Positions 2,113 through 30,933 of a stretch of 64,000 bases of DNA are shown here, piece after piece. Source of the DNA: a virus. Numbering within the stretch: the first letter of the stretch is position 1; each line of letters starts with the position of its first letter. Below the pieces are notes generated by a model. The model saw nothing but the letters and a program-made list of their open reading frames with translations. It ran no database searches and had not been told where the DNA came from. A program made the position numbers and the translations under genes. The stretch covers positions 12,965 through 76,964 of IMG/VR virus record IMGVR_UViG_3300030380_004057; one strand, 5' to 3'.

Positions 2113-2116
2113 TTAG

Positions 2117-2189
<73 letters not shown>

Positions 2190-2197
2190 AATATTAT

Positions 2198-2276
2198 ACC
2201 CGGCTGTCACTACGACTGGCTTTGTACAACTGATACCTCAAGGAAGCCAAGGCGTCGGTTTACTGTTAAGCCGGGT
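2198..2276 (-). ncRNA. putative structured RNA (nested hairpin)
   Basis: GC-rich island; ACCCGGCT/AGCCGGGT outer stem, CGAC/GTCG and TGGCTT/AAGCCA inner stems; strand inferred from neighbours. Confidence 0.5.
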
Positions 2277-2319
2277 TATGTAACCTATTGATAATTAATT
2301 TGTTAGCTATTTAGTTATG

Positions 2320-2366
2320 TAGTGGTGGCAGGAGTCGAACCTGCACCTTAGTACCGTAGCACCACT
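2320..2366 (-). ncRNA. tRNA-like minihelix (acceptor stem + T arm only)
   Basis: AGTGGTG-15 nt-GCAGG TTCGACT CCTGC-CACCACT-A. Confidence 0.7.
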
Positions 2367-2401
2367 CTAATTAACCTACTCGTCTAACTATCTATCAATG
2401 G

Positions 2402-2587
2402 TTACAAGTGCCATTCTTTTAATAATTTAATGGCTGATGCTTTTATTTTATTAAATGAACTATCATCTAACATATCTGTATAATTTATTATTCTATTCAA
2501 TGCTCTTTCAAGTTCAGTGCATAGATAAGCTGATTCTCTATCAATCATTTCATCTTGCATTTGTTCGTATGCTTTTTTACTATCCAT
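2402..2587 (-). CDS. hypothetical protein
   Basis: 61 aa ORF. Confidence 0.6.
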   Translation of the reverse strand: MDSKKAYEQMQDEMIDRESAYLCTELERALNRIINYTDMLDDSSFNKIKASAIKLLKEWHL

Positions 2588-3152: not shown

Positions 3153-3190
3153 TTATTATATTATCTGTTAGCAATCGTATTTATTTTGTA
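3153..3190 (-). promoter_or_regulatory. early promoter-like repeat copy 3
   Basis: TACAAAATAAATACGA-N9-GATAATATAATAA. Confidence 0.75.
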
Positions 3191-3257
3191 AATACTTTAT
3201 ATATTCTTTATATTCTTTTACAGTTACATACTCGTCTATTTCATCTAACCATACCAT
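3168..3257 (-). CDS. tiny hypothetical protein (29 aa)
   Basis: Manual ORF MVWLDEIDEYVTVKEYKEYIKYLQNKYDC. Confidence 0.45.
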   Translation of the reverse strand: MVWLDEIDEYVTVKEYKEYIKYLQNKYDC

Positions 3258-3265
3258 ATCGTTTA

Positions 3266-3463
3266 TTATCTCCATATTTTATTATAAGCTGCTTTATATT
3301 GTTTTGGAAAAGAAGATTTTTGCTGTAATTTATATCTTTTATCGCCCATACCTCTACATGCACCATAGATTTTAATAGTTTCTAAGTGTTGTAGCTTGCG
3401 AGTTTTACGCTTGTTTGCAACGTACTCGCATAATTCTTTCATGTTAGTTATGCTATTAGCCAT
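3266..3463 (-). CDS. basic hypothetical protein
   Basis: 65 aa ORF. Confidence 0.55.
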   Translation of the reverse strand: MANSITNMKELCEYVANKRKTRKLQHLETIKIYGACRGMGDKRYKLQQKSSFPKQYKAAYNKIWR

Positions 3464-26303: not shown

Positions 26304-28519
26304 AGTATGAACAATCTTTAATAAAAGTACTAAAAGACTATGTTAAACCTAAAGTTTTAGCTAGAAATAATAGGTATAAAAAATGGGAGTACGGTTACAA
26401 CGAAGATCACGACTTTGTAGTTATAAGTAAAACGGGCGAGATAGGTGAAGTATGTGAAATACAAAATTTAAAAATAGCTTTACCTAAAGCAAACAATGTT
26501 TATAAGTTTAAACAAAACAAATGGGCTAAGTTTGATTATCCTGACGAGTTAAAAAAAATTAAAACTGTTTATGATTTTAAGCAGTATCCACAAGATTTTA
26601 AAGAAAAATGGTATGATTACATCGATAATGAGTTTACCCGTAGGGAAGAAGGTTTTTGGTTTTATAACAAAGATATTCCTACTTACATTAGTGGCACTCA
26701 TTATATGTACTTGCAGTGGTCTAAGATTGACGTCGGGGCACCAAACTTCCGTGAGTCAAATAGATTATTCTTTATTTTCTGGGAAGCTTGTAAGGCAGAT
26801 TCACGATCCTTTGGGATGTGCTACCTTAAGAATAGGCGGTCCGGGTTTTCTTTCATGGCCTCAGGAGAGGTGGTTAACCTGGCAACCATATCAAGTGACT
26901 CTAGGTATGGTATATTATCCAAATCTGGACCTGATGCCAAATCCATGTTCACAGATAAGGTGGTACCCATATCAGTTAATTATCCCTTCTTTTTCAAACC
27001 GACCCAAGACGGAATGGACAGGCCCAAGACCGAGCTTGCCTACAGAGTACCAGCAACCAAATACACCCGTCGTAAACTTACCGCCCCCACCACCGACGAA
27101 ACCTTACAAGATCTACAGGGACTTGACACCACTATCGACTGGAAAAATACAGGTGACAACTCCTATGATGGGGAGAAACTCAAGCTCCTCGTCCATGATG
27201 AATCGGGGAAGTGGGAAAGGCCGAACAACATCCTCAACAACTGGAGGGTTACGAAAACCACATTAAGATTAGGTAGTAGAATAGTTGGTAAGTGCATGAT
27301 GGGCTCAACATCAAACGCATTAGATAAAGGTGGTGACAACTTTAAAAAGTTATACTATGATTCAGATGTTACAAAAAGAAACCGCAATGGACAGACTCGC
27401 TCAGGACTATATAGTTTGTTCATACCTATGGAATGGAACTACGAAGGATACATTGATTCTCATGGACTACCTGTATTCCAAGATCCAACAGAAAAGGTTT
27501 TTGGACCACATGGAGATGAAATTAAAAACGGAGTAATTGATTATTGGAATAACGAAGTAGATGGTTTAAAATCTGATCAAGATGCTTTAAATGAATTTTA
27601 TAGACAGTTTCCACGCACAGAGCAACATGCTTTTAGAGACGAAACAAAACAGAGTTTATTTAATTTAACAAAAATATACGAACAGGTAGATTATAACGAA
27701 GAAGTTAAAATGTCTGGGCTTATAACGCAAGGTAGCTTTCAATGGCGTAACGGTGTTAAAGATACTACTGTAGAGTTTATGCCAAATAATAACGGTAGGT
27801 TTAAAATAAGCTGGACACCTGATGCTAACATGCAAAACAGAATAATAGTTAAAAACGGTGTTAAGTTTCCTGGTAATGAACACGTTGGCGCTTTTGGTTG
27901 TGACAGTTATGATATATCAGGTACTGTTGACAGGTTAGGATCTAATGGGGCTTTACACGGTGTTACTAAGTTTAGTATGGAAAACGCACCTCCTAATAGA
28001 ATATTTTTAGAATATGTAGCAAGACCTCAAACCGCTGAAATATTTTTTGAAGATGTTCTTATGGCACTAGTATTTTACGGTATGCCAATATTGTGTGAAA
28101 ATAATAAACCAAGACTTTTATATTATTTAAAACGTCGAGGCTATAGAGGTTATTCAATGAATAGACCTGATAAAATTTGGAACAAATTATCTGTTACAGA
28201 AAAAGAAATAGGTGGTATACCTAATTCTAGCGAAGACATTAAACAAGCTCATGCTGCAGCTATAGAAAGCTATGTTGAAAACTATGTAGGAAGATTAAAT
28301 GAAAGTTATGGTGATATGTATTTTAATAGAACTTTAGAAGACTGGGCTAAGTTTGACATAAACAATAGAACTAAATTTGACGCGTCAATAAGTTCTGGTT
28401 TAGCCTTAATGGCTTGCAATAAAAACCTATATAAACCGATACAAGAAAGAAAAATAAAATCAATTAATCTTGGTATTAAAAAATATAATAACCAAGGAGT
28501 GAGATCTCAAATAATTTAA
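26300..28519 (+). CDS. terL: terminase large subunit
   Basis: Walker A KNRRSGFS, Walker B LLVHDESGKW, motif GSTSN, nuclease FGCDSYD; precedes portal. Confidence 0.92.
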   Translation: MKYEQSLIKVLKDYVKPKVLARNNRYKKWEYGYNEDHDFVVISKTGEIGEVCEIQNLKIALPKANNVYKFKQNKWAKFDYPDELKKIKTVYDFKQYPQDFKEKWYDYIDNEFTRREEGFWFYNKDIPTYISGTHYMYLQWSKIDVGAPNFRESNRLFFIFWEACKADSRSFGMCYLKNRRSGFSFMASGEVVNLATISSDSRYGILSKSGPDAKSMFTDKVVPISVNYPFFFKPTQDGMDRPKTELAYRVPATKYTRRKLTAPTTDETLQDLQGLDTTIDWKNTGDNSYDGEKLKLLVHDESGKWERPNNILNNWRVTKTTLRLGSRIVGKCMMGSTSNALDKGGDNFKKLYYDSDVTKRNRNGQTRSGLYSLFIPMEWNYEGYIDSHGLPVFQDPTEKVFGPHGDEIKNGVIDYWNNEVDGLKSDQDALNEFYRQFPRTEQHAFRDETKQSLFNLTKIYEQVDYNEEVKMSGLITQGSFQWRNGVKDTTVEFMPNNNGRFKISWTPDANMQNRIIVKNGVKFPGNEHVGAFGCDSYDISGTVDRLGSNGALHGVTKFSMENAPPNRIFLEYVARPQTAEIFFEDVLMALVFYGMPILCENNKPRLLYYLKRRGYRGYSMNRPDKIWNKLSVTEKEIGGIPNSSEDIKQAHAAAIESYVENYVGRLNESYGDMYFNRTLEDWAKFDINNRTKFDASISSGLALMACNKNLYKPIQERKIKSINLGIKKYNNQGVRSQII
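26571..27266 (+). CDS. putative overprinted (+1 frame) lipoprotein-like ORF inside terL
   Basis: 231 open codons, signal-like KIFLLTLVALIICTC, Pro-rich; local shift of terL to C/G-ending codons. Confidence 0.5.
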   Translation: MILSSIHKILKKNGMITSIMSLPVGKKVFGFITKIFLLTLVALIICTCSGLRLTSGHQTSVSQIDYSLFSGKLVRQIHDPLGCATLRIGGPGFLSWPQERWLTWQPYQVTLGMVYYPNLDLMPNPCSQIRWYPYQLIIPSFSNRPKTEWTGPRPSLPTEYQQPNTPVVNLPPPPPTKPYKIYRDLTPLSTGKIQVTTPMMGRNSSSSSMMNRGSGKGRTTSSTTGGLRKPH

Positions 28520-28521
28520 AG

Positions 28522-30933
28522 ATGATTAAAAAAGGTATTAAAACCTCTTTTCCTAGCCAAGCTGTTAGTGATGAAGAAAAGATGAGTGCTGAGTATGGCG
28601 CTAAAGTTGGTTCAGCTATTGAGCATGAGTGGTTTAGTAATAATGAAAACTCAAATAGATACACTACTTTTAAAGAATCTTTTCATTCGTTAAGACTATA
28701 TGCAAGAGGTGAGCAGTCAATTAAAAAATATAAAGATGAATTATCTATTAACGGTGATTTATCTTATTTAAATTTAGACTGGAAACCTGTACCTATTATA
28801 TCTAAGTTTGTAGATATAGTTGTAAACGGTATGGCTGATAGATTATACGATATTAAAGCATACTCGCAGGATCCAGCTGCTATAAAAGAGAGAACTGATT
28901 ATGTTGAAAATATTGTGTCAGATATGGAAGCTAAAGGATTTAATGATCAAGTAGCTCAACAGTTTGGTATAAATATGTATAAAACTGATCAATCAAGGTT
29001 ACCAACAAGTAATGAAGAACTACAGCTTCATATGCAGCTTGATTATAAACAAAGTATTGAAATAGCAGAAGAAGAAGCAATTAACAGTGTATTTGACGCT
29101 AATAAATACGATTATTTATCTAAAAGAGTTAATCATGATTTAGTTACTCTAGGTATTGGTGCTGTAAAAAATTCATTTAATAAATCAGAAGGTATTAAAA
29201 TAGAATATGTTGACCCTGCTGATTTAGTTTATTCTTATACAGACTCACCTTATTTTGATGATATATATTATGTAGGTGAAGTAAAACAAGTTTATGCTAA
29301 CGAGCTTAAAAAACAGTTTCCACAAGTAACTGATGAAGAAATAGAAAGATATAGAGGTTATTCAAACGGTTATAGAAAAAGAACAATTGTAAATAAAAAA
29401 GGTGACGACAGCAATACTATAAGTGTTTTATATTTTGAATATAAAACTTATATGAGTGAAGTTTATAAAGTAAAAAATACATCTACAGGCGGACAAAGAG
29501 CTATTAGAAAAGATAGTGGTTTTAATCCACCTAAAAATGAAGACTTTGAAAAAGTTGAAAGAGTTATAGAAGTTGTATATGAAGGGGCTAAAATATTAGG
29601 TAGTGGGTCAGATAAGCTTTTAAAGTGGGAGTTAAAGAAAAATATGATGAGACCTAAGGCTGATACTACTAAAGCTGTAATGAGTTATAGCATGTGTGCT
29701 CCGCGTATGTATGAAGGTCGTATTGAAAGTTTAGTAAGCCGTATAACTGGTTTTGCAGATATGATACAGCTTACTCATTTAAAGCTACAACAAGTTATGG
29801 CTAAAATGGTACCAGACGGTGTTTATTTAGACGCTGATGCTTTAGCTGAAATAGATTTAGGTAATGGTACTAATTATAATCCGCAAGAAGCTTTAAATAT
29901 GTATTTCCAAACTGGTAGTGTTATTGGTAGATCAATGACTCAAGATGGTGATATGAACAGGGGTATAAGGCCAGTAACTGAAATAAACTCTAGTACTAAA
30001 GGTGGTAAAATACAAAGTTTAATACAAACTTATAATTATTATCTTCAAATGATGCGTGATGTAACTGGATTAAATGAAGCTAGAGATGGAAGTACGCCAG
30101 ATAAAAACGCTTTAGTAGGTGTTCAAAAACTTGCAGCAGCAAACAGTAACACAGCAACTAGACACATATTGCAAGGTAGTTTATATATAACCTTATCGCT
30201 TGCAGAGTGTATTGCTATGAGAATATCAGATGTTATAGAATATTCTCCCACAAAAGAATCTTTTATAAAATCTTTAGGTAAATTTAATGTTGGTACATTA
30301 GAAGAAATGTCTAGTTTACACTTGCATGATTTTGGTATATTTTTAGAGTTAGCGCCTGATGAAGAAGAAAAGGCTAGACTAGAAAATAATATACAAATGG
30401 CTTTACAACAAAATACTATAAACTTAGAAGACGCTATTGATATACGTGAAGTTAGAAATATAAAGCTAGCAAATCAATTGTTGAAAATAAGAAGAAAAGC
30501 TAAAGAAGCTATTGATCAACAAAAAGCTCAGCAAAATATACAAGCTCAAGCACAGGCTAACGCCGCTGCTTCTGAAAGAGCAACCGCAGCTGAAATGCAA
30601 AAACAACAAGCTTTAAATGAAGGTAAAGCTCAAATGGAACAAGTTAAAGCTCAGCTTGAAATGCAAAAACTAGAAAGAGAAGCTCAGCTTAAAAAAGAAT
30701 TAATGCAAATTGAGTTTGAGATGAATATGCAGTTGAGACAAGCTGAAGCAAATGTATTAAAGCAAAGAGAAAAACAAAAAGAAGATCGTAAAGATGAAAG
30801 AACTAAGATACAAGCAACTCAACAAAGCGAGTTGATTGATCAAAGGAAAAAAGAAACAGGACCTAAAAGTTTTGAATCAGCTGGATTTGATAACTTAGAT
30901 GGTTTTGGCCTAGAACAATTTGATCCTAGGTAG
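28522..30933 (+). CDS. portal protein
   Basis: 803 aa after TerL; PVPIISKFVDIVV, VTGLNEARDGS, Q-rich C-terminal coil. Confidence 0.88.
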   Translation: MIKKGIKTSFPSQAVSDEEKMSAEYGAKVGSAIEHEWFSNNENSNRYTTFKESFHSLRLYARGEQSIKKYKDELSINGDLSYLNLDWKPVPIISKFVDIVVNGMADRLYDIKAYSQDPAAIKERTDYVENIVSDMEAKGFNDQVAQQFGINMYKTDQSRLPTSNEELQLHMQLDYKQSIEIAEEEAINSVFDANKYDYLSKRVNHDLVTLGIGAVKNSFNKSEGIKIEYVDPADLVYSYTDSPYFDDIYYVGEVKQVYANELKKQFPQVTDEEIERYRGYSNGYRKRTIVNKKGDDSNTISVLYFEYKTYMSEVYKVKNTSTGGQRAIRKDSGFNPPKNEDFEKVERVIEVVYEGAKILGSGSDKLLKWELKKNMMRPKADTTKAVMSYSMCAPRMYEGRIESLVSRITGFADMIQLTHLKLQQVMAKMVPDGVYLDADALAEIDLGNGTNYNPQEALNMYFQTGSVIGRSMTQDGDMNRGIRPVTEINSSTKGGKIQSLIQTYNYYLQMMRDVTGLNEARDGSTPDKNALVGVQKLAAANSNTATRHILQGSLYITLSLAECIAMRISDVIEYSPTKESFIKSLGKFNVGTLEEMSSLHLHDFGIFLELAPDEEEKARLENNIQMALQQNTINLEDAIDIREVRNIKLANQLLKIRRKAKEAIDQQKAQQNIQAQAQANAAASERATAAEMQKQQALNEGKAQMEQVKAQLEMQKLEREAQLKKELMQIEFEMNMQLRQAEANVLKQREKQKEDRKDERTKIQATQQSELIDQRKKETGPKSFESAGFDNLDGFGLEQFDPR

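Follow-up and report, generated by a model that had tools for sequence, protein, structure and literature searches.

A 46-nt tRNA-like minihelix predicted in a marine phage genome, carried as an interchangeable hairpin of a conserved scaffold RNA

The minus strand of the analysed window, a 64,000-nt stretch of a phage genome, carries between positions 2366 and 2321 a minihelix in which a 7-bp acceptor-type helix is stacked on a 5-bp T arm, all 12 pairs being of the Watson-Crick type. In the window the element is an interchangeable apical hairpin, grafted into a conserved scaffold RNA. Comparison with related contigs indicates that selection has kept this RNA module in a group of marine phages, and that it is probably kin of their tmRNA-like RNAs reduced to the tRNA-like domain (TLD-only RNAs), among which it would be the smallest natural form. 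What is new is this smallest size, together with a defined conserved linker and the grafting into a second carrier RNA. The function proposed for the minihelix, at a probability of about 0.45, slightly under even odds, is that it offers the top half of a tRNA to the tRNA-processing enzymes of the host.

The source record is an IMG/VR virus of 76,964 bp, rated complete, which encodes TerL, portal and tail-spike proteins, GroEL, ribonucleotide reductase, MazG and a primase-helicase. An integrase, SmpB, a CCA-adding enzyme and Ro60 (TROVE domain) were searched for in the complete genome and none was found; any partner of the last three kinds would therefore be the host's. More than 599 relatives of its TerL are present among IMG/VR viral contigs. 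Among cultured phages, the nearest have Flavobacterium, Cellulophaga, Tenacibaculum and Maribacter as hosts, and the closest of them (phages of Flavobacterium and Cellulophaga) have a TerL about 44% identical. When 50,697 cultured-phage records were compared by blastn, the only matches were to the tRNA-Met gene, or to T-arm fragments of ordinary tRNAs.

Small leftward ORFs surround the minihelix, which shares its strand with them and with the tRNA-Met gene. The ten neighbouring small ORFs gave neither a PHROG match nor a Pfam match above threshold, one of them showing a sub-threshold match to DUF7173. The scaffold opens a non-coding array of three units (scaffold, module M3 and tRNA-Met), located at the 3' end of an early leftward operon; the positions of all features are reported in Table 1. 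Module M3, for which no Rfam match was found within the limits given there, has a core that recurs in relatives (L193, L230, L232 and L254), either free-standing, with a closing stem of 7-8 bp, or in the middle of a TLD-only RNA. The tRNA-Met shows an A1/A72 mismatch, flagged in the Rfam alignment, and, by eye, an A11:U24 pair together with an anticodon stem that has two G-C pairs at its foot, all of which are initiator-like traits. The same tRNA-Met gene terminates the RNA array in most relatives.

Table 1. Features of the RNA array and of the ORF preceding it, by position in the window
Feature	Positions	Strand	Basis or remarks
61-codon early ORF, conserved, directly upstream	2402..2587	(-)	without match in PHROG or Pfam; extended on its 3' side by the RNA array
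Scaffold outer helix, 5' strand	2384..2405	(-)	runs from the stop codon (2404-2402) of the 61-codon ORF
Scaffold 5' frame motif ACGAGUAGGUUAAUUAG	2367..2383	(-)	GGUUA pairs with UAACU of the 3' frame
Acceptor-type helix, 5' strand AGUGGUG	2360..2366	(-)	pairing kept with compensatory changes in the family; also closes the apical hairpin of the scaffold
15-nt linker CUACGGUACUAAGGU	2345..2359	(-)	replaces D loop and variable loop; GG 4 nt past the helix
T arm: GCAGG (2344-2340), loop UUCGACU (2339-2333), CCUGC (2332-2328)	2328..2344	(-)	
Acceptor-type helix, 3' strand CACCACU	2321..2327	(-)	sequence reading and family covariation
Scaffold 3' frame motif ACAUAACUAAAU	2309..2320	(-)	AC(A/G)UAACU(G/A)AAU in 14 loci, with 11 inserts
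Scaffold outer helix, 3' strand	2280..2308	(-)	folding and comparison with relatives
Module M3, second structured unit of the array	2198..2276	(-)	closed by ACCCGGC/GCCGGGU
tRNA-Met (CAU), last unit of the array	2116..2189	(-)	ARAGORN and Rfam; trailer A-CUAA

A first-pass annotation of this DNA had described a 7-bp acceptor helix, a T arm, a 15-nt linker and 12 intact pairs, and this anatomy holds on the sequence. The spacing of the GG in the linker is that of the tRNA-like domains of tmRNAs, and these two bases are aligned to the GG of the Rfam tmRNA model. The window was searched by a script for a 7-bp helix, a linker of 4-30 nt and a 5-bp T arm closed by a UUCRANY loop, helix and arm both being perfect: the pattern occurs once in the window, and in none of 300 dinucleotide-preserving shuffles. 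A canonical tRNA cloverleaf with D arm and anticodon arm is absent, the linker being 15 nt long; the same 15 nt, between the acceptor strand and the T stem, contain no helix 2a and no pseudoknots, nor any mRNA-like domain that has a tag frame. The alanine identity pair G3:U70 is missing from the window copy, which has U3:A70 instead.

Neither ARAGORN nor the Rfam tRNA model calls the minihelix, and no tmRNA gene is reported by ARAGORN at its position; in the whole window, ARAGORN and the Rfam models at their gathering thresholds find the tRNA-Met alone. When the search was confined to 1 kb, tmRNA was the only Rfam family touching the minihelix, with 15.2 bits against a gathering score of 47, in an alignment that consists of both ends of the model and skips 328 internal model positions. 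The same 1-kb search, with E values up to 10, returned only tRNA, tmRNA and two chance snoRNA matches, and no Y-RNA family. Run on the whole genome or on the whole window, the tmRNA model did not match the minihelix.

The minimum-energy fold predicted by nearest-neighbour rules for the isolated 47-mer is a different hairpin, with -18.1 kcal/mol versus -15.3 kcal/mol for the tRNA-like fold. This alternative was considered as the biological fold and discarded: its pairs are not kept in the variants described below, while the tRNA-like pairs are. The fold is thus assigned on comparative evidence, which decides here, folding energy by itself not doing so.

In order to collect the family, IMG/VR was scanned with the letters of the linker and of the T loop, both stems being left free, and 17 contigs were obtained. 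Two further scans of IMG/VR, each leaving one half of the linker free, added only L156, L166 and the variant found in L009, all their remaining extra matches being unpaired coding sequence. At least 12 distinct stem variants occur in IMG/VR, with a nearly identical linker; their acceptor strands include AGUGGUG, GAGCAUA, GAGCAUG, GAGCGUG, GAACAUG, GCGCGUG, ACGCGAG, GGACGUG and GGGCGUG. In an alignment of ten variants, standard pairs fill all 120 of the 120 pair cells, and 8 of the 12 pairs change on both sides. Within the T arm, pairs 50:64 and 51:63 covary (C-G to U-A and A-U to G-C, respectively). This level of covariation was reached in 0 of 500 shuffles, and slid-partner controls pair in 39-54% of the cells. 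Since the stems lay outside the search patterns, the covariation may be taken as genuine. The linker, whose halves had been freed in the scans, varies at 3 of its 15 positions (11, 13 and 15) across the stem variants, at least 12 in number, and, when alignment A1 is inspected by eye, linker and T loop show no evident covariation. A covariation search had been suggested when the element was first annotated; its outcome is a short form conserved elsewhere among the IMG/VR relatives, with stems that covary.

The copies of the family stand either between other RNA units or with the next ATG 15-21 nt downstream of them, and no promoter-like motif was seen by eye between them and this ATG. A trailer of the type N73-CUA(A) is carried by the stand-alone copies, as well as by the TLDs and by the tRNA-Met. 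The overall distribution is that of an accessory, patchy element of early phage transcripts. One genome from each of 185,579 prokaryote species was searched with the linker pattern and with the T arm plus 3' strand, giving 0 matches, and no host tRNA or tmRNA could therefore be named.

The stand-alone minihelices (L019, L024, L107, L114, L117, L118, L156 and L166) are preceded by a palindromic hairpin of 4-5 bp, followed by AACA; this hairpin also covaries in sequence. In the same class, position -1 pairs with position 73 (mostly A-U, and G-C in L107), which extends the helix to 8 bp.

The Rfam tmRNA model finds, in related contigs, matches scoring 33-38 bits, which correspond to RNAs of 97-134 nt. 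Their acceptor helix is GGGCGUG/CACGUCC, with G3:U70, followed by A73; their T arm is the GCAGG/CCUGC of the window, and GG lies 3-5 bases past the acceptor strand. A scan of IMG/VR for this T arm and 3' strand identified 93 contigs (L173-L260), for a total of 85 distinct sequences between 47 and 185 nt, which have the two ends and the CUAA trailer in common, and a hypervariable middle that is almost wholly different from one to the next. Both G3:U70 and A73 are present in 80 of these 85 TLD-only relatives. The family, which includes the TLD-only RNAs of L010, L019, L021 and L025, has a nearly invariant alanine-type acceptor helix and T arm; it escapes ARAGORN and, with 33-38 bits, stays under the threshold of Rfam. 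No tag reading frame was found in the TLD-only RNAs examined with ARAGORN.

The shortest TLD form, that of L110, is itself a minihelix of 47 nt, in which the linker of the window copy is combined with the TLD acceptor GGGCGUG/CACGUCC-A, including G3:U70. The elements of L110, L109 and L115 directly follow the upstream motif that, in L113, precedes a TLD of 117 nt, and share with this TLD the T arm and the N73-CUA trailer. Because the L110 form occupies the TLD slot, the 46-nt form is placed as the minimal member of the size series of TLD-only RNAs. The window copy has both T arm and linker in common with the L110 form; with the TLDs it has the T arm in common, whereas acceptor sequence, slot and trailer differ. 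The description of the element as a tRNA mimic is accordingly retained for the fold, which is that of the top half of a tRNA, and revised for the kinship, the closest relatives being probably the TLD-only tmRNA-like RNAs and not tRNAs.

The alanine minihelix, reportedly described by Francklyn and Schimmel in 1989 as an acceptor/T-arm helix with G3:U70, provides a laboratory counterpart. The phage minihelix has the same coaxial helix of 12 bp, and the L110 form has also G3:U70 and A73; the laboratory molecule, however, has no linker, whereas the natural element keeps its 15 nt, and the window copy is without G3:U70.

Further non-canonical tRNA-like RNAs were noticed in L018-L025 (about 3290-3420) and in L114 (about 300-470 and 530-630). 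They consist of an acceptor helix and a T arm, with a large variable insert replacing D and anticodon arms; one of them is apparently a full tRNA with an expanded anticodon arm. None of this set is called by ARAGORN.

The 61-codon ORF of Table 1 is common to 22 contigs, and in 14 of them it is followed by the scaffold frame, the elements of which come in the order outer helix, ACGAGUAGGUUAAU(U)AG, insert, AC(A/G)UAACU(G/A)AAU and returning strand. The outer helix is kept with different sequences in the relatives, that is, it covaries, and independent folding of six variants produced the same architecture. By eye, the AGUA opposite GAA/AAA, in the invariant internal motif of the scaffold, looks like a loop-E platform. 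No Rfam match was found for the scaffold, either in the window (2280-2405, minus strand) or in L005-L025 (about 3184-3330).

The site at the apex of the scaffold is filled in the relatives by 11 unrelated kinds of hairpin, and one relative is without the scaffold. It is the minihelix that occupies the site in the window, L005, L007 and L015, and the partial contig L008 ends within this insert. In L009 a diverged copy lies at the same site, with two compensatory pairs in the T stem and a helix re-paired as 6 bp, giving a stack of 11 bp. Comparison with L015 gives an identity of 98.8% over the 85 nt that run from the stop codon to A2320, versus 81.4% over the adjoining ORF. In two respects the first-pass annotation is corrected by these data. 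The 46-nt element, which had been taken as free-standing, is in the window the apical hairpin of a larger conserved RNA; and A2320, which had been read as a discriminator base, opens the 3' frame, where it is invariant whatever the insert, and so belongs to the scaffold. The 3' flank of the window copy is CAUAAC, and not the CUA(A) trailer of stand-alone copies. The relatives have no full tRNA here, the site being occupied in them by unrelated hairpins.

A second carrier RNA was observed downstream of the scaffold in L005, L007, L010, L012, L013 and L113. It starts with UGGGUUAAAACACGAAGGACGG and ends with GUGCACGGUGCAACCC, and it too has variable inserts, short modules recurring across carriers. 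Between the units of the arrays lie spacers, either AAAAUAUU or AAGAUAUU.

In four marine metatranscriptomes, from four studies, short contigs cover positions 2302-2396 with 0-1 differences. What this establishes, at the level of assembled contigs, is presence of the region in RNA libraries and not its transcription. Breaks in the contigs fall at 2367 and 2293, the two borders of the insert; one contig runs across these borders with 65 other letters, and further types of insert are visible at loose ends. The insert site of the scaffold is heterogeneous in nature, and these data suggest that the insert is polymorphic within natural populations. Four assemblies (L004, L006, L008 and L015) also end at or inside the minihelix.

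According to the reading proposed here, the fold of the minihelix would present a tRNA-like substrate to those host factors that read the stack of acceptor and T arm and the elbow, candidates being RNase P, RNase Z, the CCA-adding enzyme and the enzymes that modify the T loop. The GG of the linker probably closes the elbow against the T loop. A long early transcript might be cut and capped at the minihelix, like a t-element or the tRNA-like domain of the mycobacterial YrlA; in the window, we infer that cleavage would produce two base-paired pieces of scaffold and a free minihelix of about 46-50 nt. The positions of the family, between RNA units or before ATGs, and the tRNA-type 3' trailers fit this reading, which takes up the processing signal proposed in the first-pass annotation, and so does a tRNA-like fold with intact acceptor stem and T arm, contained within a longer transcript. 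Against it, the helix in the window is not at a free end and is without a CUA(A) trailer, the stack of L009 at this site measures 11 bp and not 12 bp, and 11 unrelated hairpins fill the same site. As these 11 inserts are tolerated, the scaffold does not require a tRNA-like one; and the near-invariant 15-nt linker, unneeded by a plain processing signal, points to a more specific partner.

Two natural systems are close to such an entry site for processing. According to Forner et al. 2007 (PMC1920247), the tRNA-like folds known in plant mitochondria as t-elements have ends that match those left on RNAs by RNase P and RNase Z. The t-elements share with the minihelix a non-canonical tRNA-like fold, with intact T arm and acceptor stem, inside a longer transcript; they are, however, organellar, about 70 nt long, usually provided with a cloverleaf-like core, and their ends are mapped, whereas the core of the minihelix is the conserved 15-nt linker and the element is known from sequence. 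In YrlA of M. smegmatis, cleavage by RNase P and addition of CCA take place inside a larger RNA (Chen et al. 2014, PMC4201824). YrlA and the scaffold have in common a long terminal stem, an internal motif conserved within it, and a tRNA-like module at the apex. The motif in the scaffold stem, ACGAGUAGG, nevertheless misfits the GNCGAAN0-1G of YrlA (PMC4201824), and the YrlA module has a D arm and a loop-capped acceptor stem, a topology opposite to that of the minihelix.

The minihelix might, instead, act on trans-translation, by binding the SmpB of the host, perhaps also EF-Tu and ribosomes, and so damping or redirecting rescue, for which charging would be unneeded; this is possible, on the unlikely side. 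Its likely membership in the TLD family argues for it (common T arm, GG at 4 nt, L110 in the TLD slot), and a near-invariant linker suits a specific protein partner. Mycobacteriophage DS6A carries a TLD-only tmRNA, and tmRNAs of about 65 bp without CDS are found in jakobid mitochondria and in Mallomonadaceae plastids (PMC4131195, PMC11915505). In E. coli, tmRNA is strongly inhibited by a TLD-only molecule, chargeable or not, perhaps through titration of SmpB (PMC4131195, PMC11915505). The DS6A RNA was located at 28478-28560; it is 83 nt long, scores 43 bits on the Rfam tmRNA model and ends, like the stand-alone and TLD forms, with A-CUA, A-CCA being absent from its end. It resembles the minihelix of the window in being phage-encoded and in having an acceptor helix and a T arm, a short surrogate of the D loop and no tag frame; the likeness extends to the GG, 4 nt after the acceptor strand in the minihelix and spaced 3-5 nt in DS6A and in the phage TLDs. 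On the other hand, DS6A has G3:U70, a helix-2a hairpin and a length of 83 nt, whereas the minihelix of the window has U3:A70, no helix 2a and 46 nt, and is embedded.

Helix 2a and the GAC-type junction are part of the contact surface of SmpB, and the 46-nt form is without helix 2a and without the adjoining junction of this type. The window copy is also buried in the scaffold, with U3:A70 in place of G3:U70, and its score on the tmRNA model is just 15.2 bits; these points all weigh against a decoy of SmpB. The absence of any other TLD from the complete genome, which might be counted in favour of it, was set aside as uninformative for window-type genomes, about half of the complete relatives being likewise without a TLD.

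A more sceptical account, which we hold improbable, is that the minihelix is a mobile passenger, recombined into a permissive apical site, where it would serve as a stable cap with no tRNA-related role. The 11 unrelated inserts at the site and the relative without scaffold are as expected on this account, as are the movement of modules between carriers, the population heterogeneity seen in assemblies and metatranscriptome contigs that break at 2367 and 2293, and the acceptor helix of L009, shifted to 6 bp. The same L009 copy, however, keeps T arm and linker through two compensatory pair changes, while its helix re-pairs. The RNA stretch is, moreover, far better conserved than the ORF, which also counts against a passenger, although this is true of the whole scaffold and not of the insert alone.

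A wider scheme is conceivable, although distinctly improbable. Swappable modules would be displayed by two RNA carriers, one being an alanine-type TLD and the other the scaffold, through its loop-E-like platform a docking site for a protein. The scaffold would here display a tRNA elbow, as a Y-RNA-like adaptor tethering to this protein a host factor that binds the top half of a tRNA, be it SmpB, EF-Tu, RNase P or an enzyme acting on the T loop, and the factor would be retargeted early in infection.

Very unlikely is a decoy for toxins acting on the acceptor end (nucleotidyltransferase, pyrophosphokinase or acetyltransferase), which the minihelix would absorb after addition of CCA. It has general plausibility, for a patchy accessory element of early transcripts that offers an acceptor end without an anticodon; but no association with defence or counter-defence genes was found, a free 3' end would arise in the window copy only by processing, and no sequence feature links the minihelix to a particular toxin. 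The decoy against tRNA-targeting host defences, offered in the first-pass annotation, thus finds no specific support, and the precedent published for a TLD-only RNA points instead to interference with tmRNA and SmpB (PMC4131195). Finally, a tRNA gene decayed by internal deletion, or an attP-type copy of the 3' end of a host tRNA or tmRNA, can practically be dismissed: fragments of tRNA genes are common in phages, but the stems covary over at least 12 variants and no relative has a full tRNA at the site, which upholds the initial argument from intact pairs against decay, and there are unrelated hairpins at the site in the relatives, no integrase in the complete genome and 0 matches in one genome each of the 185,579 prokaryote species.

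Mimics of the tRNA top half are known from few, scattered cases: tmRNA domains, the t-elements of plant mitochondria and Y RNAs. The minihelix is a natural 46-nt version, supported by covariation, with a defined linker of 15 nt that probably closes the elbow, and tied by intermediates to a large and diverse family of message-less tmRNA-like RNAs of phages. If RNase P and RNase Z are recruited to it, as in the favoured reading, phages of Flavobacteriaceae would punctuate their early transcripts in the style of organelles; if SmpB is bound, the minihelix would be a minimal natural inhibitor, or hijacker, of ribosome rescue. The conserved linker is a compact model of the least RNA needed for a tRNA elbow, and the module-swapping RNA arrays represent an unannotated class of phage non-coding RNA worth study.
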